A DNA stretch of 25,408 nt from a virus (lineage: Duplodnaviria; Heunggongvirae; Uroviricota; Caudoviricetes): the IMG/VR virus record IMGVR_UViG_2734482775_000005, one strand, 5' to 3'. Shown here piece after piece: positions 1,137 through 14,952 of this stretch. The notes under the pieces are model-generated. The model searched no databases. It was not told the origin of the DNA and was given only the letters and a program-made list of their open reading frames with translations. Position 1 is the stretch's first letter. Every line of letters starts with the position of its first letter. A program made the position numbers and the translations under genes.

Positions 1137-2813
1137 CTAAGCAACATGTAGTTCATCGTTGGCGGAAGTGGCTGCTTTGCGTTCCTGCTCAATAGCTAGT
1201 GACTCTCTATATTCTTTCGCCTCTGCAAACATTGTCCAGTGGGCATTGATGTTCATATCTTCAATAACCGATTTAATTTCTTTAATATTTACGTTAAAAA
1301 ACTCTTTTCGTGAGTTAATTTTATTGACCTGCTTTTCGTTGAAGACTTTATGCAGATGATTTTCTAATGACGGTGCATCATCACTATAAATCATCGCATG
1401 AACATCGAACGCAAAAGGAACACTAGCATCCCCAAGTTCACGAACACGATCAAGTGGTTCAAGGCGGCGTGTCATTCCAATTTTATATACATCTTCGCCA
1501 AATGAGCCAATATTGCTAATTATATAAACATGGCCTGATCTAGTTTGTTGAGCCATAGAAATAGCTCGTTGGTTTTTAGCTTCAGCTTCTTCATATTTTA
1601 ACTGTAGTTCAGCTATTTTTTGCTCTAAAGCTAAGCGTTGTTCTTCATTTGCAAGCATAAGCTCTTTCGTCGCTTTATTTATAGCTTGCTGAATAGCTTT
1701 CTCTTCTTTTTCGGCTTCTTTTATCGCTTTTTCATACTCTCTACGAGCTCTTTCCTCTTCACGAAGCTGTTCTTTAATCCTTCTTTGCTCCTCTTTTTCT
1801 TCGAGCATAATTTCATTAACTGCAACTCCCCATTTTAGCTCGTTGAGTCGTGCCTGAAGATAGATGTCACTTATTTTTGCGGATTTAAAAGCAGAGCCAT
1901 TATAATTTACAAGTTGAAATGCATCTTTTATTTCTTGGGAAAGTTTTCCAAAATTGTTGTGTTTGACTTTTGATAAAATACTGTCAACTCTTCCATTGAA
2001 GGCATCCAAAACAAAGTTGATAGCAGTATTACGCCTGTTTTGCTCAACATAATCACACGAAGCTGCTTTATTAGTTTTTATTAATGATTTTGTTAACTCC
2101 CTGGCTTTTTGTAATTCCTTGCCTGCATCTGTAAACTCATAATTTTCTGCCAATTCATCAAGTACACTGCGGTTAGGGATGATCCATTCATCGCCATAAC
2201 CTTCAATTTTATTTTTCATTGATTTGGCAACTGCTTCATATTTTTCTGCAAACTCTTTAGCTTCATATGCTGAACCAGCAATCTCTTTTGCTCTTTCTTC
2301 TGCATCGGAAATAATTTTTACTGCGTTGTCATTAGCATTTGAGATCAGCTCATTTGCTTTACTGTTGGCATTATCAAGACGTTCTTTGGCTTTCAGGCGT
2401 GCATCGCGAGCGTCTTTGGTGATTGCTATAGCTTCGCTATTAGCGTTGCTTATTGTTATCTGAGCTTGATAATTTGCTTCGTTTACTGTCTTAGCAGCCT
2501 TTATTTGGGCTTCTTCTATTTTTTGCCTGGCTATTGAGTCTGCATTTTTTATCTTATTCTCTGCTTCCATCACTGCGCTGTGCAATTCTACGTATTGCCA
2601 TAATGGTGCAGCTCGTCCTTCAAGCTCTGATAGATCTCGTACAGTCTGTGCTAATTCTTCTTGATTTTCTTTCAGTTGGCTGGAAAGAGCTATGTTGTTA
2701 GCCGTCAGGTTATCTATGGCGGTTTTGTGTTCTTTACTTTGCTTAAATAATATTATAGCTAGAACAGGGGCGAGAAATGCTAATAAGAATATAACGATGG
2801 AAAATGAATTCAT
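1137..2813 (-). CDS. Membrane-anchored coiled-coil protein with C-terminal T5orf172/GIY-YIG-like (MUG113-type) domain; DUF4041-like architecture; candidate defence/abortive-infection cargo
   Basis: 558 aa; N-terminal hydrophobic helix MNSFSIVIFLLAFLAPVLAIILF; about 400 aa of K/E/A-rich heptad-like coiled coil; C-terminal motif GHVYIISNIGSFGEDVYKIGMTRRLEPLDRVRELGDASVPFAFDVHAMIY...EFF; AAGGA RBS 8 nt upstream of ATG at 2813; AT-rich relative to phage core. Confidence 0.75.
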   Translation of the reverse strand: MNSFSIVIFLLAFLAPVLAIILFKQSKEHKTAIDNLTANNIALSSQLKENQEELAQTVRDLSELEGRAAPLWQYVELHSAVMEAENKIKNADSIARQKIEEAQIKAAKTVNEANYQAQITISNANSEAIAITKDARDARLKAKERLDNANSKANELISNANDNAVKIISDAEERAKEIAGSAYEAKEFAEKYEAVAKSMKNKIEGYGDEWIIPNRSVLDELAENYEFTDAGKELQKARELTKSLIKTNKAASCDYVEQNRRNTAINFVLDAFNGRVDSILSKVKHNNFGKLSQEIKDAFQLVNYNGSAFKSAKISDIYLQARLNELKWGVAVNEIMLEEKEEQRRIKEQLREEERARREYEKAIKEAEKEEKAIQQAINKATKELMLANEEQRLALEQKIAELQLKYEEAEAKNQRAISMAQQTRSGHVYIISNIGSFGEDVYKIGMTRRLEPLDRVRELGDASVPFAFDVHAMIYSDDAPSLENHLHKVFNEKQVNKINSRKEFFNVNIKEIKSVIEDMNINAHWTMFAEAKEYRESLAIEQERKAATSANDELHVA

Positions 2814-5580: not shown

Positions 5581-6434
5581 GCACCATCCTGAAATGGGCG
5601 GGAAATAAAACCGCAATTATGTCCGAACTGAAAAAACACCTTCCTGCTGGCCCGCGACTGGTTGAACCTTTCGCAGGTTCCTGTGCTGTGATGATGGCGA
5701 CGGATTATCCAAGCTATCTGGTTGCGGATATTAATCCTGATTTAATCAACCTCTATAAAAAGGTTGCCGCTGATTGTGAATCGTTTATATCTCGCGCCAG
5801 AGTTTTATTTAAGGAAGCAAACAGGGAGGTGGCTTATTACAACATAAGGCAGGAGTTTAATTACTCAACTGAAATTACTGATTTCATGAAAGCGGTATAT
5901 TTCCTGTATCTCAATCGTCACGGTTACCGTGGTTTATGTCGCTATAACAAGAGCGGGCATTTCAACATTCCGTACGGTAATTATAAAAATCCGTATTTCC
6001 CTGAAAAAGAAATTCGCGCATTTGCAGAGAAAGCCCAGCGGGCAACGTTTATCTGCGCAAGCTTTGATGAAACGCTGGCGATGCTGCAGGTGGGGGATGT
6101 GGTGTATTGCGATCCGCCGTATGACGGTACGTTTTCCGGCTATCACACTGATGGTTTCACTGAAGATGACCAGTATCACCTGGCATCCGTTCTTGAACAT
6201 CGGTCATCAGAAGGACATCCGGTCATTGTTTCTAACAGTGACACATCCCTGATCCGTTCGCTATATCGCAATTTTACTCACCACTACATCAAGGCAAAAC
6301 GCAGCATCGGTGTGGCAGCTGGTGAGAGTAAATCTGCAACAGAAATCATCGCTGTTTCCGGGCCGCGCTGCTGGGTGGGATTTGATCCTTCGCGTGGCGT
6401 GGATAGTTCTGCCGTGTACGGAGTGCGTGCATGA
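5577..6434 (+). CDS. dam: DNA adenine methyltransferase (Dam-like, N6-adenine MTase)
   Basis: N-terminal WAGNK-type motif (LKWAGNK), FAGSCAV AdoMet-binding region, catalytic DPPY motif (CDPPYDGT); ATGA overlap with upstream stop. Confidence 0.85.
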
Positions 6435-8845
6435 GCCATGCTGATATGAACAACTGCAGCGGCTTTAACGAGGTCGCCGCAGCATTCTCATGGAACAGCC
6501 CGAAAAAGGCCATTAACCCTTATCTGGACCCGGCGGAAGTTGCGCCGGTTTCTGCGCTTTCAAACCTGATCACTCTGTACGCTGCCGATAACGAGCAGGA
6601 ACAGCTGCGCCGTGAGGCGCTGAGTGATCAGGTCTGGGAGCGTTATTTCTTTAATGAATCCCGTGATCCTGTCCAGCGCGAAATGGAACAGGATAAGCTC
6701 ATTAGTCGGGCAAAGCTGGCGCATGAGCAGCAGCGTTTTAATCCGGATATGGTCATTCTGGCGGACGTCAACGCCCAGCCTTCCCATATCAGCAAGCCGC
6801 TGATGCAACGTATTGAATACTTCAGCAGCCTGAGCAGGCCAAAGGCTTATTCCCGCTATTTGCGTGAGACGATTAAGCCATGTCTGGAACGACTGGAGCA
6901 TGTACGCGACAGTCAGCTATCTGCGTCTTTTCGCTTTATGGCAAGCCATGAAGGGCTGGACGGCCTGCTGATCCTGCCTGAAATGAGTCAGGATCAGGTG
7001 AAACGCCTGTCCACCCTGGTAGCTGCGCATATGAGTATGTGCCTTGATGCCGCTTGTGGCGATTTGTATGCCACCGATGACGTTAAGCCAGAAGAAATCC
7101 GCAATACATGGGAAAGGGTGGCAGCGGAAACCCTGCGTCTGGATGTCATCCCGCCTGCGTTTGAGCAACTCCGTCGGAAAAGAAACCGCCGTAAACCCGT
7201 GCCCTATGAACTCATTCCGGGTTCGCTGGCACGTATGTTGTGCGCCGACTGGTGGTATCGGAAATTATGGAAGATGCGTTGCGAATGGCGGGAAGAGCAG
7301 TTGCGTGCTGTCTGCCTTGTCAGCAAAAAAGCATCTCCCTATGTCAGCTATGAAGCCGTGTTGCATAAACGTGAGCAGCGCCGTAAGTCGCTGGAGTTTT
7401 TCCGTTCTCATGAACTGGTGAACGAAGACGGCGACACGCTGGACATGGAGGATGTGGTAAACGCCAGCAGCAGCAACCCTGCGCATCGCCGCAATGAGAT
7501 GATGGCCTGTGTTAAAGGTCTGGATCTTATCGCGGAAATGCGCGGTGACTGCGCCGTTTTCTACACCATCACCTGTCCGTCACGTTTCCATTCCACGCTA
7601 AATAACGGCAGGCCCAACCCGACCTGGACAAATGCGACGGTAAGACAAAGCAGCGATTATCTGGTCGGTATGTTTGCTGCATTTCGTAAGGCGATGCACA
7701 AAGCCGGGTTGCGCTGGTATGGCGTGCGGGTGGCTGAGCCGCATCACGACGGCACAGTTCACTGGCACCTGTTGTGTTTCATGCGCAAAAAAGACCGCCG
7801 CGCCATTACTGCATTGTTGCGTAAGTTTGCTATCCGTGAAGACCGCGAGGAGCTGGGCAATAACACGGGGCCGCGCTTTAAGTCTGAGCTGATTAACCCG
7901 CGCAAAGGAACGCCGACAAGCTACATAGCGAAATACATCAGTAAGAACATTGACGGGCGTGGTCTGGCTGGCGAGATCAGCAAGGAAACGGGTAAATCTC
8001 TGCGTGATAACGCTGAATACGTGAATGCCTGGGCGTCTTTGCATCGTGTTCAGCAATTCCGCTTCTTTGGCATTCCGGGACGTCAGGCTTACCGTGAACT
8101 GCGATTGCTGGCTGGTCAGGCGGCAAGGCAACAGGGGGACAAAAAAGCAGGTGCGCCGGTACTGGATAACCCGCGCCTTGATGCCATCCTGGCTGCTGCT
8201 GATGCTGGTTGTTTTGCCACCTACATCATGAAGCAGGGCGGCGTACTGGTTCCCCGTAAATATCACCTCATCAGAACCGCTTATGAAATCAACGAAGAGC
8301 CGACCGCCTATGGCGATCACGGCATTCGTATTTATGGCATCTGGTCACCCATTGCAGAGGGCAAGATCTGCACTCATGCAGTGAAGTGGAAAATGGTTCG
8401 TAAAGCCGTTGACGTTCAGGAGGCGGCAGCCGACCAGGGCGCTTGCGCCCCTTGGACTCGTGGCAATAACTGTCCCCTTGCTGAAAATTTGAACCAACAA
8501 GGGAAAGACAAATCAGCTGATGGGGATACCAGAACGGATATCACCCGCATGGATGACAAGGAGTTGCACGATTACCTGCACAGTATGAGCAAAAAAGAGC
8601 GCCGGGAACTGGCAGCAAGATTACGCCTGGTGAAACCGAAACGGCGTAGAGACTACAAACAGCGAATTACAGACCATCAACGACAGCAGCTCGTCTATGA
8701 ACTGAAGTCCAGAGGATTTGATGGCAGCGAGAAAGAGGTCGATTTACTCCTTCGCGGCGGCAGTATTCCGTCAGGAGCAGGCCTGCGAATCTTCTATCGG
8801 AACCAGCGTTTGCAGGAAGATGATAAGTGGCGGAACCTGTATTAA
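6431..8845 (+). CDS. A: Replication initiation endonuclease (P2 gpA-like rolling-circle initiator)
   Basis: 804 aa; HUH-type motif VHWHLL; size and position as P2/186 gene A; ATGA coupling with dam. Confidence 0.85.
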
Positions 8846-8936
8846 TTACGCGGGTTAACAATTCGTGCTCTTAATAATACCAGCATATCAGGCTGATGAA
8901 CGTAAAAAAACGTTTTACATCAGTAAGATTATTATA

Positions 8937-8956
8937 TACTGTAAATATAAACAGTG
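8937..8956 (+). promoter_or_regulatory. LexA-binding SOS box overlapping a promoter
   Basis: TACTGTAAATATAAACAGTG = CTGT-N8(AT-rich)-ACAG, a perfect match to the core LexA consensus; TTTACA -35-like hexamer about 20 bp upstream. Confidence 0.7.
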
Positions 8957-8997
8957 ATTATACATACAGTATTGCGTGTGGTGTCATAGGAGGAAAG

Positions 8998-9186
8998 ATG
9001 CAGGACTATTTTTTGGAGTCTTTGAAGCTCCAGCGCATTGATTTTTTTCTTAAGCTTGTAGCGGCTAGTGAGTGTAGTGATGAAGAGAAGGGGCTGGCTC
9101 TGCAGTGGGTTTCTGAATTGACTGATGAACTCATGGCAAAAATCAGAACCCACGAATACAACCGCTCAATGGATGTCATCAGCTGA
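8998..9186 (+). CDS. Small SOS-controlled protein, candidate antirepressor (Tum-like role)
   Basis: 62 aa from ATG 8998 with AGGAGGA RBS, directly downstream of the LexA box; the longer track ORF from 8896 would begin upstream of the box. Confidence 0.45.
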   Translation: MQDYFLESLKLQRIDFFLKLVAASECSDEEKGLALQWVSELTDELMAKIRTHEYNRSMDVIS

Positions 9187-9196
9187 GGTGACTTTT

Positions 9197-9430
9197 ATGC
9201 GCATTGAAATAATGATCGATAAAGAGCAGAAGATTAGCCAGTCTACCCTGGACGCCCTTGAATCCGAGCTTTACCGCAATCTGCGCCCCCTGTATCCCAA
9301 AACGGTAATTCGCATTCGCAAAGGTAGCTCTAACGGTGTGGAACTAACCGGACTGCAACTGGACGAAGAAAGAAAACAAGTGATGAAAATTATGCAGAAG
9401 GTGTGGGAAGACGACAGCTGGCTGCATTAA
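9197..9430 (+). CDS. dinI: DinI-like protein (DinI/MsgA family)
   Basis: 77 aa; MRIEIMIDK...LESELYRNLRPLYP...VWEDDSWL resembles E. coli DinI; GAGGTG RBS; same LexA-boxed operon. Confidence 0.7.
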   Translation: MRIEIMIDKEQKISQSTLDALESELYRNLRPLYPKTVIRIRKGSSNGVELTGLQLDEERKQVMKIMQKVWEDDSWLH

Positions 9431-9565
9431 GAAACGTTGCTGGCGTCTGAACTTGCTTCTGGCGTCAGCAAGGTTGAACAACGAGCCCTTGCGAGGCGTT
9501 AGCTCTGTAGTGCATGTCTATGCCGCATGAGATCGCATGATCGTTTGAGGATCGTTTTTGCTAAG

Positions 9566-9590
9566 GCCCGCCAGAACTGGCGGGCTTTTG
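9566..9590 (+). terminator. Rho-independent terminator ending the SOS operon
   Basis: GCCCGCCAG-AA-CTGGCGGGC stem-loop followed by TTTTG. Confidence 0.7.
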
Positions 9591-9788
9591 CGTAGATCAT
9601 GCAGGTGCATGAAAACCACTACATAAAGCGGGCAGGCGTGGCGGGGATACGAGCGCGCGCCCGGTAGTTTAAATATAAAGTTATCAAAAGATGTTTTGAT
9701 GGAACTTTGTTATGGTTAATGTGTCAACCAAGATGTAAACTATATTGAAAAGAACGTTATTGATGGATTTTAAAATTAGGAGGGCGAC

Positions 9789-10595
9789 ATGAGTGACAGC
9801 AATCGCATGTCCAATGCACCCGTATACTATGTGCTGGCGCAAGTTAAGTTTACGCCTATCAAGGCGATGAAAAAGTATGTCGATGACATTCAGGAAGCAT
9901 TGCGTTTAAGGGGCTATCCACTCTTTGAAAGAAGAGAGGCAATGCAAATGGTGTTTGATGTTAATACGCCCGGTGAATCGCCTCAGCCATCTTTTGAAAT
10001 GGTCCAGCAGTGGTATATGTCTGACATCACTAAGACTTCAGGTTTTGTCTTGGGTAACGATTTTATTACTTTCCAGACGACTGATTACAAAGAACATGAA
10101 CCGTTCTTTAAAGCATTGATGGAAGGATTGTCTGTCGTAATAGAACATGCTAACCCAGCCCTTTTGACAAGACTTGGTTTGAGGTATCTGGATGCCGTAA
10201 TACCTAGTGAGGGTGAAAAGATTGAGCAGTACCTTTGCAATGGCTTACATGGTGTAGATTTGGATTTATCTCCGATACAATCGGTTAACGAGATGGTTTT
10301 CCAAACAAATGTTGGTCCTGTTATAAGTACTGGCTTTTTAGTAACTCGTTTGCATAAGATGTTTGGTCAGTTGAGTTTTCCTCCAGATATCTTGCCCTTT
10401 GGGGTTGAAATGCTTGAGCGGTTCAGGAGCGACAAGGCTCTTTGGCATGGGATTATTGATACAGACCATTATGTTGAAGGAAACATGCCGCCAGAAATAG
10501 ATTCAATTGAGCAACAGTTCAATTCACTACATGGTGTTGTAAAGGAAAGCTTTAATAAAATGGTATCCCAACATGCCATTAATAGGTGGGTATAA
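9789..10595 (+). CDS. Cargo gene 1 of three-gene operon: unknown-function protein (268 aa)
   Basis: AGGAGGG RBS before ATG 9789; no family assigned with confidence (N-terminal NAPVYYVLAQVKF is, very tentatively, reminiscent of TIGR04255-type uncharacterised proteins); AT-rich versus phage core. Confidence 0.75.
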   Translation: MSDSNRMSNAPVYYVLAQVKFTPIKAMKKYVDDIQEALRLRGYPLFERREAMQMVFDVNTPGESPQPSFEMVQQWYMSDITKTSGFVLGNDFITFQTTDYKEHEPFFKALMEGLSVVIEHANPALLTRLGLRYLDAVIPSEGEKIEQYLCNGLHGVDLDLSPIQSVNEMVFQTNVGPVISTGFLVTRLHKMFGQLSFPPDILPFGVEMLERFRSDKALWHGIIDTDHYVEGNMPPEIDSIEQQFNSLHGVVKESFNKMVSQHAINRWV

Positions 10596-10612
10596 CACCG
10601 GGGAGGTGTAAT

Positions 10613-11254
10613 ATGCGTCAATCCATGACTGGTAGTTGCTATGGGACTCCTGGTTTAGCTCCTATTGCTGGAGCGTTATTTGTTGCAACCTCTATGTTCC
10701 TGAGTGGAACAGGAGCGAGCTATTCTGTGAAGGATGTAAACCAGTGGCGTGGTTTTGTACAACCTAAAGTCCATTTTGGGTTATCTAAACTTGAAAATCA
10801 TGGGGATACAGATAATGACCCTGTTGATATCAGGACAATTTCAGAACATTTAAGTAATGTTAGGGATACTCTTTCTCCATCAATGTCAGAACTGGCTAAA
10901 GATTTGGGTATTACTAGGCAAGCATTATACAAATGGTTATCCGGTGACAGTCAGCCTGATGATATTGGGAAAGCTGGTTACATCATTGAACTCAGTAGAT
11001 TAGCCGATCGCTTTAACAAAGCAGGAGTAGAAAATGCTAAGTTGATGTCAAAAATGAAAGCGTTTGACGGCTTATCTATTATTGATTTGATTAAGCGAGG
11101 CGATGACTGGAAGTCGTCTGTGAATCTCTTAATCGATGAAGCTCGCCAGCTTAAAATTGCAGGTGTAAAAGCGAATTTAACTGGGAGCAAAAGCACGCCA
11201 ACTGACGGGTGGATGTCGTCTGTTTCTATACCTGGTTCAGGAATGAAGGAGTAG
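10613..11254 (+). CDS. Cargo gene 2: protein with central XRE-type helix-turn-helix and an N-terminal hydrophobic segment
   Basis: ATG 10613 with GGGAGG RBS, 17 bp after gene 1 stop; HTH-like MSELAKDLGITRQALYKWLSGDSQP; N-terminal GLAPIAGALFVATSMFLSGTGA is possibly a membrane helix. Confidence 0.7.
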   Translation: MRQSMTGSCYGTPGLAPIAGALFVATSMFLSGTGASYSVKDVNQWRGFVQPKVHFGLSKLENHGDTDNDPVDIRTISEHLSNVRDTLSPSMSELAKDLGITRQALYKWLSGDSQPDDIGKAGYIIELSRLADRFNKAGVENAKLMSKMKAFDGLSIIDLIKRGDDWKSSVNLLIDEARQLKIAGVKANLTGSKSTPTDGWMSSVSIPGSGMKE

Positions 11255-11264
11255 ATAGTCATTT

Positions 11265-12104
11265 ATGGTTGATATTGCTACAGCATGGCGCCAAGGCCAG
11301 GTTCTTAGGCATGAGGATGCAGTTTCTTTGGGTATTCTTACCGAAGAGGAAATAGGCGTTAAAGTTGTCGTGATCAGTCATGATTGTGACTTGCAAAGCT
11401 CTTCTGAACCCAGCGTTGAGCTTATTGCTGGCCCTCTCATTAAGGGGGCCAGCAATTATGCACGTGCTAAACATCCCAGAGTTCTGCATTTGCATTTAGA
11501 GCAAGCGCGTGACGCGAATCAAAATGCAATTGAACTAAGACATGACAACAAATTTCGTATTGATAAAGAACGTTTCACGTGTGTGGGATGTGACCCTACT
11601 TGCCAAATATCCCCTGAGGAAAAGCAAGGTTTAAAACAATGGCTTGCTGCCCGCTATGGGCGACCTGCCTTTCCTGATGTTTTTGAGAGTAGGCTAAGAG
11701 CTTTCGACACAAAGAAATTTAGATTCGAAAAACAACTCGCAAAGATAATTAGCAAACATTCAGTCTATTTGATAGGTGTATTCTTTGATTTAGGCGAAGA
11801 TCGTTTCAATGATTTAGAGGAAGGTGTACCTTACGAACTGAATATTCATCTTGTCTATGATTCTATAGATGGTGGGCCGGATGCAAGAGCAGAGGCAGAG
11901 CAGGCGGCAACACAAATTGAAGAGTTCTTTGTAACGTACCATGGTGATGCGTCTGAAAGTGAACTCATTGCGCTTATGTCTTGTAACGCAGTTCCTGACG
12001 TTGAATTCAGTCTGTATGCGTTACGGCGAATGGACCAGTGGCGGGTTGAGTACATTAGTCTACAAGGTGATGACGTGGGTGATTACATCAACCCAGCCAT
12101 CTAA
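11265..12104 (+). CDS. Cargo gene 3: unknown-function protein (279 aa)
   Basis: ATG 11265 ten bp after gene 2 stop with AAGGAG upstream; no recognisable domain by eye; ends at the bidirectional terminator. Confidence 0.75.
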   Translation: MVDIATAWRQGQVLRHEDAVSLGILTEEEIGVKVVVISHDCDLQSSSEPSVELIAGPLIKGASNYARAKHPRVLHLHLEQARDANQNAIELRHDNKFRIDKERFTCVGCDPTCQISPEEKQGLKQWLAARYGRPAFPDVFESRLRAFDTKKFRFEKQLAKIISKHSVYLIGVFFDLGEDRFNDLEEGVPYELNIHLVYDSIDGGPDARAEAEQAATQIEEFFVTYHGDASESELIALMSCNAVPDVEFSLYALRRMDQWRVEYISLQGDDVGDYINPAI

Positions 12105-12110
12105 TATATT

Positions 12111-12153
12111 AAAAAGTACTGTGTGTTCAATTTGAACAAACAGTACATTTATT
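12111..12153. terminator. Bidirectional intrinsic terminator between convergent cargo gene 3 and portal gene Q
   Basis: Near-perfect 15-bp inverted repeat GTACTGTGTGTTCAA / TTGAACAAACAGTAC (one mismatch) flanked by AAAAA on the left and ATTTATT on the right. Confidence 0.55.
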
Positions 12154-13186
12154 CCCTTGGTTCTAGACAATATGATTCAAAGCGAGCTACCTCCTCACCA
12201 ACCCATTGGTTAAGTTCTTGCAGCCGCTTCTGTAGCGGAATTAGCTCGTTTCGGACAAAGACTTTGCTGGCCTTTTCCACATCACCAAACCCCCCGACAT
12301 TATTAGGCATAATCCCCATCATTTGCGGCGGCACGCGGTGCGCAGCCATCATGTCATCACGGCTCACGTTCTTGATATTCAGAAACTCATCCTTCGCTGC
12401 GACTTCTGACAACGGGATAATCTGAAGTCCGTCCTTTTTGCCGTTAGGCGAGTACATAAACAGATTGCGGAAGTTGCCAGGGCCTTTGGCGCTTTTCATC
12501 GCGTTGCGGAGGTTGTTCACATCCTCCTGGTTCTGCGCGGCATCGGTCATATACATGATGAAGCCTGCATGGCTGCCGTTGATGTAATACTTACGGCGGA
12601 ACAGCGTGGCGGACTCGTTGAGCAGGGCTGACGGAATGGCAGAAAGATAACCGGGCAGGCCGTAGATCTCCTGATTAATATCCGGTTCCATCAGATGAAA
12701 AATGCTGCCTTTCGTGAACTGATACGGCTGGGTTGTCATACCGTATTGCACAAACCAGTAGGTATCCAGGTCTAATCCGCGTCGGGTGTATTTTGCCAGC
12801 GCAGGTTCAAGGGCGATCACTTCACCGAAGCGGTTCGTGCGTTTCTCCAGATAGGCATTGCCAAATACCAGATAGTCCTGCACAAAACGCGAAAAAGCCT
12901 GCTGGCTGAGCAGAGGATGAGGGATATAGGTACTGGTCAGAATGTTACACTTTACTGCAATCGGGGAACTGTGATGCACGGCAGCGCGGAAGGTGCGCGC
13001 CAGTCCGTCAAAGCTGACGGGAGGCTCATACCAGCGGTCCATCTGTACGCATTCCACATAGTCCAGCAGTTCACGGCGGTCCAGAACAGGAACGGGATCG
13101 CCGAAGCTGAATGCTTCGGCTGTAGTTTGACTTTTAAGCTGGATCTGTTTCGTCGCCGCAGCTCGGTTCTTCTTACTCTTTCCCAT
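12149..13186 (-). CDS. Q: Portal (capsid portal vertex) protein, P2 gpQ-like
   Basis: About 345 aa; position and orientation as P2 Q; ATG at 13186 overlaps the terminase stop. Confidence 0.9.
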   Translation of the reverse strand: MGKSKKNRAAATKQIQLKSQTTAEAFSFGDPVPVLDRRELLDYVECVQMDRWYEPPVSFDGLARTFRAAVHHSSPIAVKCNILTSTYIPHPLLSQQAFSRFVQDYLVFGNAYLEKRTNRFGEVIALEPALAKYTRRGLDLDTYWFVQYGMTTQPYQFTKGSIFHLMEPDINQEIYGLPGYLSAIPSALLNESATLFRRKYYINGSHAGFIMYMTDAAQNQEDVNNLRNAMKSAKGPGNFRNLFMYSPNGKKDGLQIIPLSEVAAKDEFLNIKNVSRDDMMAAHRVPPQMMGIMPNNVGGFGDVEKASKVFVRNELIPLQKRLQELNQWVGEEVARFESYCLEPRE

Positions 13187-14952
13187 CAAAAAATCTCCAC
13201 AATATTGCTGGTATTGGCGGATTCGCCCTGCAGCGGTTCGTTAAACAGTGCGTGCATCGTTGCCCATGCCAGATCGGCGTGGCTGGCTTCTTCGCTGCGG
13301 CTGGCTTCATAGGTCGGGCGGTTGCCACTGGCGGTGGTGGCGCGACGGATTGCCATAAAGGACTGCGCTATGTCGGTGTGTCCGGCGTCAAACTCCAGAC
13401 GGCGGTGGCTGATAATGTCGTAGGCCTTGAGTACCAGGGCGTTTTTAACGTTGGGGTTGTAGACAAACTCCCGGACGGCAGGAAAGAACGCTTTCACGTT
13501 CTCATAAACCCCGTGACCGACACCTGTCGAGTCGATACCGATATAGGTCACGTTGTACTGTTCAGTCAGTTTTTTGATGGCGTCCGCCTGGGCACGGAAG
13601 TCCATCCCGCGCCACTGGTGACGCTCAAGAATGCGGAATTTACCGCCCGGCACGGCTGGCGGAGCCACCACCACGCATCCGGCACTGTCGCCGTTCTGCG
13701 TACCTTTTGCCGGGTCATAACCGATCCACACCTCGCGCCAGCCAAACGGGCGCAGGGCCAGTGCATGAAAGTCGGTCCAGACTTCCCAACTGTCCACCAT
13801 GCACGCCTGCAGTTCGCTGAGCGGGAACACGGACGCGAGATCGTCTACGAACTCGCACATCAGCAGGTTCTGGTATTCGTCCGGGCTGTACTCCATGCGT
13901 AGCTGGTCGAGGTCGAACAGGTTACAGCCGCCGCGCACCGCATCTTCCACGGTGACTATCTGGCGGTATTGCCCGTCTGCGCACAGCAGGCCGGGGGCCA
14001 GATTGCTGTGGGACAGGTCGATGTCCACCTTGTCAGCTTTGTTGCGCCCACGGTTGAACAGCGCACCGGACCAGAACGGATAAGCACTGTGGGTCAGGCT
14101 GGATGGTGTGGAAAAATAGGTCTGCCGCCATTTCTTGTGAATAGCCATACCGGAAGCCACTTTGCGCAGCTCCTGAAATTTTGGTATCCAGAAATATTCA
14201 TCCAGATACAGGTTGCCGTGGTAACTCTGGGCCGTGCGGGCATTGGTGCCGAGGAAGTAAAGCGTGGCCCCGTTGGGAAGCACCATCGGATCGCCTTTCA
14301 GCTCCGCCTCCACTTCTTTGGCGAAGTCGATGATGTACTGCTTAAAGACGTGAGCCTGTGCCTTACTGGCAGAAAGGAAAATCTGGTTACGTCCGGTAAG
14401 CAGGGCGTCAATCAGGGCTTCACGGGCAAAGTAAAAGGTCGCGCCGATCTGGCGTGACTTCAGCAGGTTGCGGATGCGGTTGGTTTTTCCGGCTTCCCAC
14501 CAGTGGCGCTGGTAGTTGAACATGGAGGAATGGAAGATTTCTTCCAGCTTCTCAATCTGTTCATCGGTGAAGACATTCTTTTCCGGCTGACGGCGCGGGC
14601 CTTTGTTGCGGTTGGCGACGTTAGGGTTTAAGTCAGCTTCGTTGCCGCCATTGTTAAACTTGCCGATCCGCGCGTGGCGCTCAGACTGGCGCGCCAGCAG
14701 GTCAATCTCTTTGAAATCTTTCCCTTCTTTGTGCTCCTTCATAATGAGCTGGCAGTAGCGTGCGGCGGTGGTGAGCTGCATCTGATCCAGCGGCCCATAG
14801 TCACCCCACTTGTCGCGTTTTTTCCAGCTGTGAACGGTTGCAACTTTCTCGCCCAGCATTTCAGCAATGCGGGCTACGCGGTATCCCTGAAAGTACAGCA
14901 GCATGGCCTGCCGACGGGGATCGAGATCTGCGGGTGTCAGTGTGGTGTTCAT
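13186..14952 (-). CDS. P: Terminase large (ATPase) subunit, P2 gpP-like
   Basis: 588 aa; conserved position upstream of Q and divergent from O. Confidence 0.9.
   Translation of the reverse strand: MNTTLTPADLDPRRQAMLLYFQGYRVARIAEMLGEKVATVHSWKKRDKWGDYGPLDQMQLTTAARYCQLIMKEHKEGKDFKEIDLLARQSERHARIGKFNNGGNEADLNPNVANRNKGPRRQPEKNVFTDEQIEKLEEIFHSSMFNYQRHWWEAGKTNRIRNLLKSRQIGATFYFAREALIDALLTGRNQIFLSASKAQAHVFKQYIIDFAKEVEAELKGDPMVLPNGATLYFLGTNARTAQSYHGNLYLDEYFWIPKFQELRKVASGMAIHKKWRQTYFSTPSSLTHSAYPFWSGALFNRGRNKADKVDIDLSHSNLAPGLLCADGQYRQIVTVEDAVRGGCNLFDLDQLRMEYSPDEYQNLLMCEFVDDLASVFPLSELQACMVDSWEVWTDFHALALRPFGWREVWIGYDPAKGTQNGDSAGCVVVAPPAVPGGKFRILERHQWRGMDFRAQADAIKKLTEQYNVTYIGIDSTGVGHGVYENVKAFFPAVREFVYNPNVKNALVLKAYDIISHRRLEFDAGHTDIAQSFMAIRRATTASGNRPTYEASRSEEASHADLAWATMHALFNEPLQGESANTSNIVEIF

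Follow-up and report, generated by a model that had tools for sequence, protein, structure and literature searches.

Between genes gpA and gpQ, and adjacent to cos, phage P2 and its relatives possess a hotspot of variable cargo, which in P2 itself holds old and tin (Rousset et al. 2022). This slot is an experimentally validated defence hotspot, and the three-gene system 3HP, which is among its published occupants, protects against phage P1. P2 hotspots also hold cargo that is not defensive, e.g., partition systems and cytolethal distending toxin (Rousset et al. 2022). Considered here is the content of this slot in a P2-like prophage, of the 186/Fels-2 type, as found in IMG/VR virus record IMGVR_UViG_2734482775_000005, with the whole 25,408-nucleotide stretch of DNA that was analysed being referred to as the window. 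There, three co-oriented genes, designated A, B, and C, form a cassette which on balance probably is a mobile anti-phage module, that is, a three-part system of toxin-antitoxin-like or abortive-infection type which is carried by P2-like phages as cargo. An earlier note on this DNA had read the cassette as a cargo operon and a candidate for an undescribed defence system. That reading is supported by what follows, with defence as the probable function.

The cassette consists of the following genes, with positions counted from the first letter of the window:

9789-10595, plus strand: gene A, encoding a TIGR04255 family protein of 268 aa, the proposed sensor or enzyme subunit
10613-11254, plus strand: gene B, encoding an XRE-type helix-turn-helix (HTH) protein of 213 aa as counted from its ATG, the proposed repressor and antitoxin
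11265-12104, plus strand: gene C, encoding a two-domain protein of 279 aa, the proposed effector (toxin)

These are genuine genes, as each has hundreds of full-length homologues. The open reading frames (ORFs) are exactly those which the earlier note had described, both in length and in their close spacing, with gaps of 17 nt between A and B and of 10 nt between B and C. (An in-frame GTG at 10586, 5′ of the ATG of gene B, would instead make B 222 aa long.) The claim that each gene has its own ribosome-binding site likewise held up, with AGGAGG (9778-9783) found 5 nt before the start of gene A, GGGGAGG found 6 nt before that of gene B, and GAAGGAG found 13 nt before the ATG of gene C, this last spacing being beyond the optimum.

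The three genes of the cassette stay together. Conserved peptides of C were searched against 185,579 species-representative genomes, yielding at least 162 relatives, and the best 80 of these 162 loci were analysed. In all 80 of those genome loci, and in 47 of 49 viral contigs, A, B, and C are all present, co-oriented and with their order unchanged, both sets of loci having been found via C alone. Co-occurrence of the trio in other genomes, which the earlier note had put forward as something to be checked, is what is observed. The architecture is kept down to identities of approximately 30% among relatives of A, and is found as well in plasmid copies from Klebsiella and Pseudomonas. Identities of A, B, and C to the window copy furthermore co-vary from locus to locus (Spearman 0.69-0.80, n = 125). 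The C family contains 2068 representatives at 50% clustering, nearly all of them about 280 aa in length, and hosts are found among the Gamma-, Beta-, and Alphaproteobacteria, Nitrospirae, Chloroflexota, Omnitrophota, Chlamydiae, Verrucomicrobia, Acidobacteria, Gemmatimonadota, and Actinobacteria. So patchy a host spread is typical of horizontally moving genes. The cassette is a real, ancient, and mobile module, a unit which persists in more than ten bacterial phyla.

Loci in which the arrangement is altered are informative as to how the three proteins may relate. In an Arenicellales metagenome-assembled genome (MAG; OZ241916.1, positions 6706-7986 of locus L076) a continuous ORF of 427 aa joins the TIGR04255 domain of A to the HTH and tail of B, without the N-terminal hydrophobic segment of B, and this ORF is found directly 5′ of a C homologue. 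Unless it is an assembly error, the fusion is an indication that A and B come into direct physical contact. In a Chlamydiae MAG (L054, 3729-7992) an IS66 element, itself holding a group II intron reverse transcriptase, is present between B and a frameshifted C, and in a second Chlamydiae MAG (L084, 5684-8001) an IS607-like serine recombinase element is found exactly between B and C. Among approximately 140 loci no insertion was seen between A and B. Frameshifts occur in a few loci and, taken together with insertions, these disruptions are at C or at the junction of B and C in five loci versus at A in one. The two insertions between B and C, which are independent of one another, along with broken copies of C, fit with C being costly to express.

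In terms of location, the genes found 5′ of the cassette are, in order, those for an integrase, a CI repressor, early genes, a Dam-type methylase, a replication endonuclease, a phrog_698 ORF, and a DinI homologue, with the portal and terminase genes instead found 3′. This is the gpA-gpQ interval, such that the earlier note's placement of the cassette in the equivalent of the tin and old slot of P2 is confirmed, and the cassette thereby displays one generic attribute of defence systems, which is to be located in a validated hotspot. The features that flank the three genes are these:

6431-8845: replication endonuclease gene, 804 aa
9560-9591, plus strand: intrinsic terminator closing the DinI/early transcription unit, with inverted repeat 9560-9574 / 9577-9591 followed by TTTTG
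9600-9683: conserved P2-like backbone flank with cos-like ggcgtggcggggatacgagcgcgcg (9636-9660), the left edge of the variable hotspot
9684-9788, plus strand: AT-rich cassette leader, with two TTGATGGA direct repeats (9696, 9760) plus AGGAGG
12116-12146, both strands: hairpin between the converging gene C and portal gene Q, a bidirectional terminator candidate
12149-13189, minus strand: portal gene (Q), followed by terminase and late genes

The limits of the cargo are defined by comparison. From E. coli, 1262 records match a 9600-12160 query only at positions 1 to approximately 83, at 89-100% identity. As these records share the flank to approximately position 9683 and then diverge, the cargo should span approximately 9684-12148. 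This flank also occurs, as its reverse complement, next to the 3HP cargo that was cloned by Rousset et al. (Table S2A), which itself is unrelated. The cos label for ggcgtggcggggatacgagcgcgcg, which is cos-like, rests on the placing of the hotspot beside cos by Rousset et al. (2022). The cargo is found between this cos-like sequence and the portal gene rather than between the replication gene and cos, as is so too for the published 3HP clone. As the earlier note had also observed, the cassette is AT-richer than the phage core (53-57% GC), its GC content being 41.6% over 9684-12148 versus 53.4% for the replication gene, 55.0% for portal and terminase, and 56.9% for the late region.

The hairpin at 9560-9591, which bears out the claim of an upstream intrinsic terminator, has a predicted RNA folding energy of -23.7 kcal/mol (z-score of -4.9, with 0 of 200 shuffles as good) and is followed by a U-run. 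Downstream, where the earlier note had placed a bidirectional terminator, the hairpin at 12116-12146 is predicted to fold on both strands (-15.5 kcal/mol on the plus strand and -15.2 kcal/mol on the minus strand, with z-scores of -4.15 and -4.43, respectively), and its U-run is good on the minus, portal strand and weak on the plus strand. The promoter of the cassette is presumed to be in the leader (9684-9788), in which, in addition to the 8-nt direct repeat, TTGATGGA, that occurs twice, there are weak palindromes.

Two small genes precede the cargo (window 8896-9430), encoding the phrog_698 protein (~62 aa) and the DinI-like protein (Pfam DinI, E = 1e-22). The hotspot table of Rousset et al. 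counts both within the variable interval, yet they are kept in most of the related prophages that were examined. In that 2022 catalogue the cassette is listed as ‘hypothetical x4 + DinI’ and is absent from the 19 systems that were tested.

Protein A matches the NCBIfam family TIGR04255 at 161.2 bits, versus a cutoff of 30 (E = 3.9e-47), over positions 1-251 of the 252 of the model, and RefSeq annotates the identical gene as being of the same family. The earlier note had seen no recognizable domain in either of the proteins flanking B, which does not hold: A, with its 161 bits, is a TIGR04255 member, while C has a predicted MazF-like fold. Neither a Pfam family nor a PDB sequence relative was found for A using single-sequence and profile searches. 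A literature search found no paper mentioning TIGR04255, CHP04255, IPR026349, or any of 12 RefSeq accessions. The AlphaFold2 model of A, which is of high confidence (predicted local distance difference test score, pLDDT, of 91.8; predicted template-modelling score, pTM, of 0.88), consists of a large, antiparallel sheet made up of two beta-alpha-beta repeats. Invariant across the family are Y13, Q18, R39, R128, R132, D135, E168, D224, and D226. The structures closest to the model are kinases and ligases, and at the level of fold A resembles phosphagen and protein-arginine kinases, a likeness in shape. The modelled sheet suggests a ligand-binding or catalytic surface. By sequence, i.e., Pfam ATP-gua_Ptrans, A was not identified as a guanidino kinase or as McsB.

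Protein B has its HTH at residues 80-116. Pfam HTH_3 (PF01381) is matched by the window copy at 23.5 bits, just meeting the gathering cutoff of 23, and by 29 of 29 aligned B homologues (best E = 1e-5), with the match precomputed for many database relatives as well. The XRE-type HTH described by the earlier note thus stands, whereas the N-terminal hydrophobic segment described along with it is a borderline membrane helix (Kyte-Doolittle value of 1.56 over 19 residues) that is absent from some homologues. In order, B consists of this hydrophobic stretch, an invariant Gly-Thr-Gly, the HTH, a helical region, and a conserved tail, SK..DW.S..SIPG. It is also the fastest evolving of the three proteins, with mean identity of 34% among distant loci versus 42-43% for A and C. 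Considered as well was whether the C-terminal half of B is an Xre/MbcA/ParS antitoxin domain, an assignment which was rejected: There was no Pfam match, and relatives in the PDB were generic HTH proteins only.

Protein C had no match in Pfam (E <= 0.1), NCBIfam, or PADLOC, nor was there anything consistent in Pfam for 61 diverse relatives (E <= 1), and neither its single sequence nor its profile found relatives among PDB sequences. The model of C (pLDDT of 80.7) has two domains. The N-terminal one (approximately residues 12-100) is predicted to be an SH3-like barrel of the MazF/Kid/CcdB type, falling within the fold of that superfamily, and in the wide family its invariant residues are D40, C41, D42, E52, and R72. 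There follows a highly conserved linker, W126-L127-A-A-R-Y131-G-R133-P-A-F-P137 (motif WLAARYGRPAFP), in which W126, L127, Y131, R133, and P137 are invariant. The C-terminal alpha/beta domain shows a weak likeness to minimal nucleotidyltransferases, with acidic residues D175, D199, and D245, which are not invariant in the wider family. Its assignment as a minimal nucleotidyltransferase (MNT/Pol-beta) was rejected, as the Gly-Ser ... Asp-x-Asp catalytic motif was not found. In a Klebsiella pneumoniae plasmid, pVA126-339 (locus L143), the nearly invariant His39 of C is replaced by Gln (SQDCD), with Asp-Cys-Asp retained.

Sequence homology between C and MazF was also considered and rejected, with an hhalign probability of 0.2% against four MazF/Kid sequences, this being a weak test. 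Because there is no sequence-level link to MazF, C is not filed as a member of the MazF family. Judging from the model it is the MazF fold only that C shares. The active site of Kid consists of Arg, Asp, and His, and residues such as these can therefore support RNase chemistry on a MazF-type fold.

Within phages the cassette is found mostly where it is found in the window. Of viral copies, 35 of 49 adjoin a P2-type portal gene, at 40-100% identity, versus 4 of the 80 genome loci. That so few genome loci are beside a P2 portal implies that the cassette exists independently of P2-like phages, and that it was acquired by these phages, in this slot, on more than one occasion. Among complete E. coli genomes, 19 of 5426 have a version that is detectable at the DNA level, one being of the window type and 18 of a type that is ~64% identical, and those E. 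coli copies that were inspected are in the same slot as the window cassette. On pVA126-339 (338.8 kb) a diverged trio is found a few kilobases from a tape measure gene, an element which may be a phage-plasmid.

Burkholderia phage vB_SBP38 (L145, 4986-8274) and six related P2-like phages encode a TIGR04255 protein that is distantly related to A (E = 2e-16 with the A profile). There the slot, from integrase to portal, holds the TIGR04255 protein, two small non-Pfam proteins that are unlike B and C, and a Gp49/HigB-like toxin with its HI1420-type antidote. TIGR04255, to go by these phages, may be a module that is reused while its partners are exchanged.

The window prophage appears to be armed elsewhere as well. 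Between integrase and CI (1137-2813, minus strand) is an ORF of 558 aa, of 37% GC, with DUF4041 and a T5orf172/MUG113 nuclease domain, which matches the single-gene defence system PD-Lambda-1 (PADLOC, E = 1e-119). By that match, the same prophage has a second cargo slot that is occupied by a known defence gene. In a near-identical prophage of E. coli MFDS1001074 the PD-Lambda-1 slot holds instead a ‘P-loop NTPase fold protein’.

Outside of phages the company kept by the cassette varies. One locus has a DUF4011/MTES_1575 helicase along with a type IIG-like restriction-modification (methylase-nuclease) gene, another has BrxR-WYL with an SNF2-NOV_C helicase, and another has IS66 elements and an integrase, while a plasmid copy has for neighbours a RES toxin along with a Tn7-like transposon. 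At 23 loci the three ORFs closest on each side were scanned, 137 ORFs in all and with output consisting of family counts rather than of results per locus, and Hhe, PDC-S37, Wadjet, BREX, HmaA, DrmD, and methyltransferases each turned up a single time, along with many housekeeping genes.

Comparison with libraries of described systems does not name the cassette. For A and C, none of the 5027 models of PADLOC v2 (PADLOC-DB v2.0.0, 2023) matched at E <= 0.1, and for B there were weak, HTH-level matches only, to RmrA and mad1 (E = 0.003-0.008). In hmmsearch, the A, B, and C profiles scored no more than 1.3 bits against 3HP (in one tally no more than 0.3 bits), Tin, orf91, and Old, the last over its first ~500 residues. 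That the trio is the 3HP of Rousset et al. is ruled out by the published sequences (Table S2A) together with this profile search, and the same search rules out its being a homologue of old, tin, or orf91, with Old covered over those first ~500 residues. The earlier note had held that homology to a named defence system, tin and old included, or to ordinary phage genes would undo its reading. Neither was found: As to the latter, PHROGs matched B to transcription regulators only and C, marginally, to one family of unknown function. A keyword search of the literature for a MazF-like/XRE three-gene system returned only unrelated work on RelE/ParE. Among the DefensePredictor supplements, Table S3 (PMC13092281, supplementary file 11) has ‘TIGR04255 family protein’ twice, in what appears to be a table of product names of neighbouring genes with attribution scores, and none of the accessions are listed in those supplements.

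How might such a cassette function? An HTH gene directly preceding a toxin-fold gene, tight spacing, a regulator that is the fastest-evolving component, a C that is found decoupled or broken, and a third gene which is obligatory, all point to a toxin-antitoxin-like abortive infection. In the lysogen, the HTH of B would bind the cassette leader and thereby repress the operon, and B would also hold C inactive through direct contact, via its conserved tail or its N-terminal segment. C would be the effector, with the Asp-Cys-Asp, Glu, and Arg cluster of its barrel serving as active or target-binding site. By analogy with MazF, Kid, and ToxN, its activity most plausibly would be RNA cleavage, with the C-terminal domain playing a regulatory or assembly role. 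A would be an infection sensor or a modifying enzyme, with invariant Arg, Asp, and Glu residues on its sheet, similar to phosphagen and protein-arginine kinases. Upon infection by a competing phage, A would release or activate C, and growth of the infected cell would stop.

A more ambitious version of this mechanism is possible as well, and is offered tentatively. The trio would then be a new three-component immune system in which TIGR04255 represents a hitherto unrecognized class of enzyme or sensor, with a sheet of kinase/ligase type, that detects infection and controls a MazF-fold effector possessing a new, Asp-Cys-Asp active site. Belonging to that version, and held equally doubtful, is that TIGR04255 would be reused with unrelated partners, as the Burkholderia P2-like phages may illustrate.

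A rough prior for a defensive role is supplied by a 2026 survey (Nucleic Acids Research), in which 6 of 8 randomly chosen loci of unknown function from P4 satellite hotspots were protective against phages, with only P4 loci tested, and in which 19% of P2 hotspots were without an identifiable defence gene. Hotspot cargo without a known function is common and is usually defensive, and what is proposed here would be of a known kind, i.e., toxin-antitoxin-like prophage defence cargo. As a candidate for an undescribed defence system the cassette is a good one.

Various points weigh against that reading. Defence as a function we infer from location and association, and the roles assigned to A, B, and C are likewise putative. 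Many of the non-phage copies are found among housekeeping genes, e.g., those for type II secretion, TonB receptors, DNA polymerase I, and gyrase, such that the association with defence is real though mixed rather than uniform. The catalytic Arg of MazF falls at a variable position in C. A scan of the leader for the sigma-70 consensus gave no match, and neither a promoter nor an operator was identified there. Lastly, with PADLOC models of 2023, any system that received its name later could have gone unnoticed.

Of explanations other than defence, one is that of addiction or stabilization, with the cassette a three-part toxin-antitoxin system keeping prophage, plasmid, or island in place but lacking a direct anti-phage role. 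An HTH protein followed at tight spacing by a toxin-fold protein is what this would predict. Copies moreover occur on plasmids and have as neighbours transposons, integrases, and other toxin-antitoxin genes (RES and the HigBA-like pair), while many have no defence neighbours. Integrated P2-like prophages, however, scarcely need post-segregational killing, and the gpA-gpQ slot is one that is enriched for phage-protective systems. We consider addiction on its own to be unlikely. Many toxin-antitoxin systems are abortive-infection systems as well, and for that reason addiction and defence overlap rather than exclude one another. Also possible, though decidedly improbable, is that roles are swapped, A being an enzymatic effector, e.g., a kinase or ligase that consumes ATP and has its target in the host or in the phage, with C a sensor or adaptor and B the regulator. 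It is A, after all, that has the best-conserved fold, the invariant charged cluster (R128, R132, D135, E168, D224, and D226), and kinases and ligases as its nearest structures, whereas C is without a MazF sequence signature. In the Burkholderia phages, where TIGR04255 is paired with other proteins, it is A that stays constant while its companions vary, but this argument cuts both ways, as in modular defence systems a constant part can be sensor or effector. Also against a swap are the disruptions, which as noted are concentrated at C or at its junction with B rather than at A, and that C carries the sole fold for which there is a known toxin precedent.

It could be, too, that the cassette is an accessory module which is unrelated to phage conflict, such as a stress, signalling, or metabolic regulator carried about by mobile elements, or that it serves the phage itself in counter-defence or lysogeny control. 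This we view as very unlikely. In its favour are that none of the three families has a known function, that several chromosomal copies are found among metabolic or envelope genes, and that P2 hotspots carry more than defence. A role in the phage life cycle is nonetheless difficult to reconcile with 76 of 80 genome loci not being beside P2-type genes, while hallmarks of conflict systems are instead seen in the patchy spread over phyla, the low GC content, the presence of a toxin fold beside an HTH, and the linkage of the cassette to defence genes, integrases, and insertion sequences. The reading of the cassette as an anti-phage module of toxin-antitoxin-like type thus is the one that is preferred here.

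Should the cassette protect against phages, then a widespread system would be added to the catalogue, one present in at least 162 species genomes, in approximately 2000 protein clusters at 50% identity, and in more than ten phyla. It would also provide a first function for three orphan families, TIGR04255 along with two that are not in Pfam, and an example of a MazF-type toxin barrel with a different chemistry that is under three-part control. The cassette in addition represents a ready test of whether P2 hotspot cargo of no known function is usually defensive, and the whole unit, being 2.5 kb in length and from E. coli, is clonable with its own leader.

Of described systems, those closest to C are MazEF, Kid-Kis, and CcdAB, which are type II toxin-antitoxin systems, along with the type III abortive-infection toxins of ToxIN/CptIN, with all of which C shares a predicted toxin fold but not a sequence relationship. 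The conserved residues differ, C having Asp-Cys-Asp, Glu, and Arg, and in its 279 aa C also possesses a conserved linker and another domain beyond the barrel. The partner encoded 5′ is here a 213-aa protein with an XRE-type HTH rather than one of the MazE/AbrB or CcdA type, and the third, invariably linked gene, that of the TIGR04255 protein, has no counterpart in those systems. With HEPN-MNT and AbiEi/AbiEii the C-terminal domain of C has a weak likeness, but its acidic residues are not invariant and the trio is without a HEPN partner. Closest to A are phosphagen (guanidino) kinases and the protein-arginine kinase McsB and, more widely, the glutamine synthetase/guanidino kinase and TBP-like double beta-alpha-beta folds. 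From old and tin of P2 the cassette differs in that old encodes an ATPase-nuclease and tin just one protein, with an HTH partner and a TIGR04255 protein lacking from both, while the likeness is that those too are exclusion genes carried by a prophage in this same slot. From 3HP it differs in its proteins, those of 3HP being 336, 367, and 226 aa in length and unrelated to A, B, and C, but the two otherwise are alike in consisting of three genes without clear domains, in occupying the same P2 hotspot, and in having the same cos-side flank.

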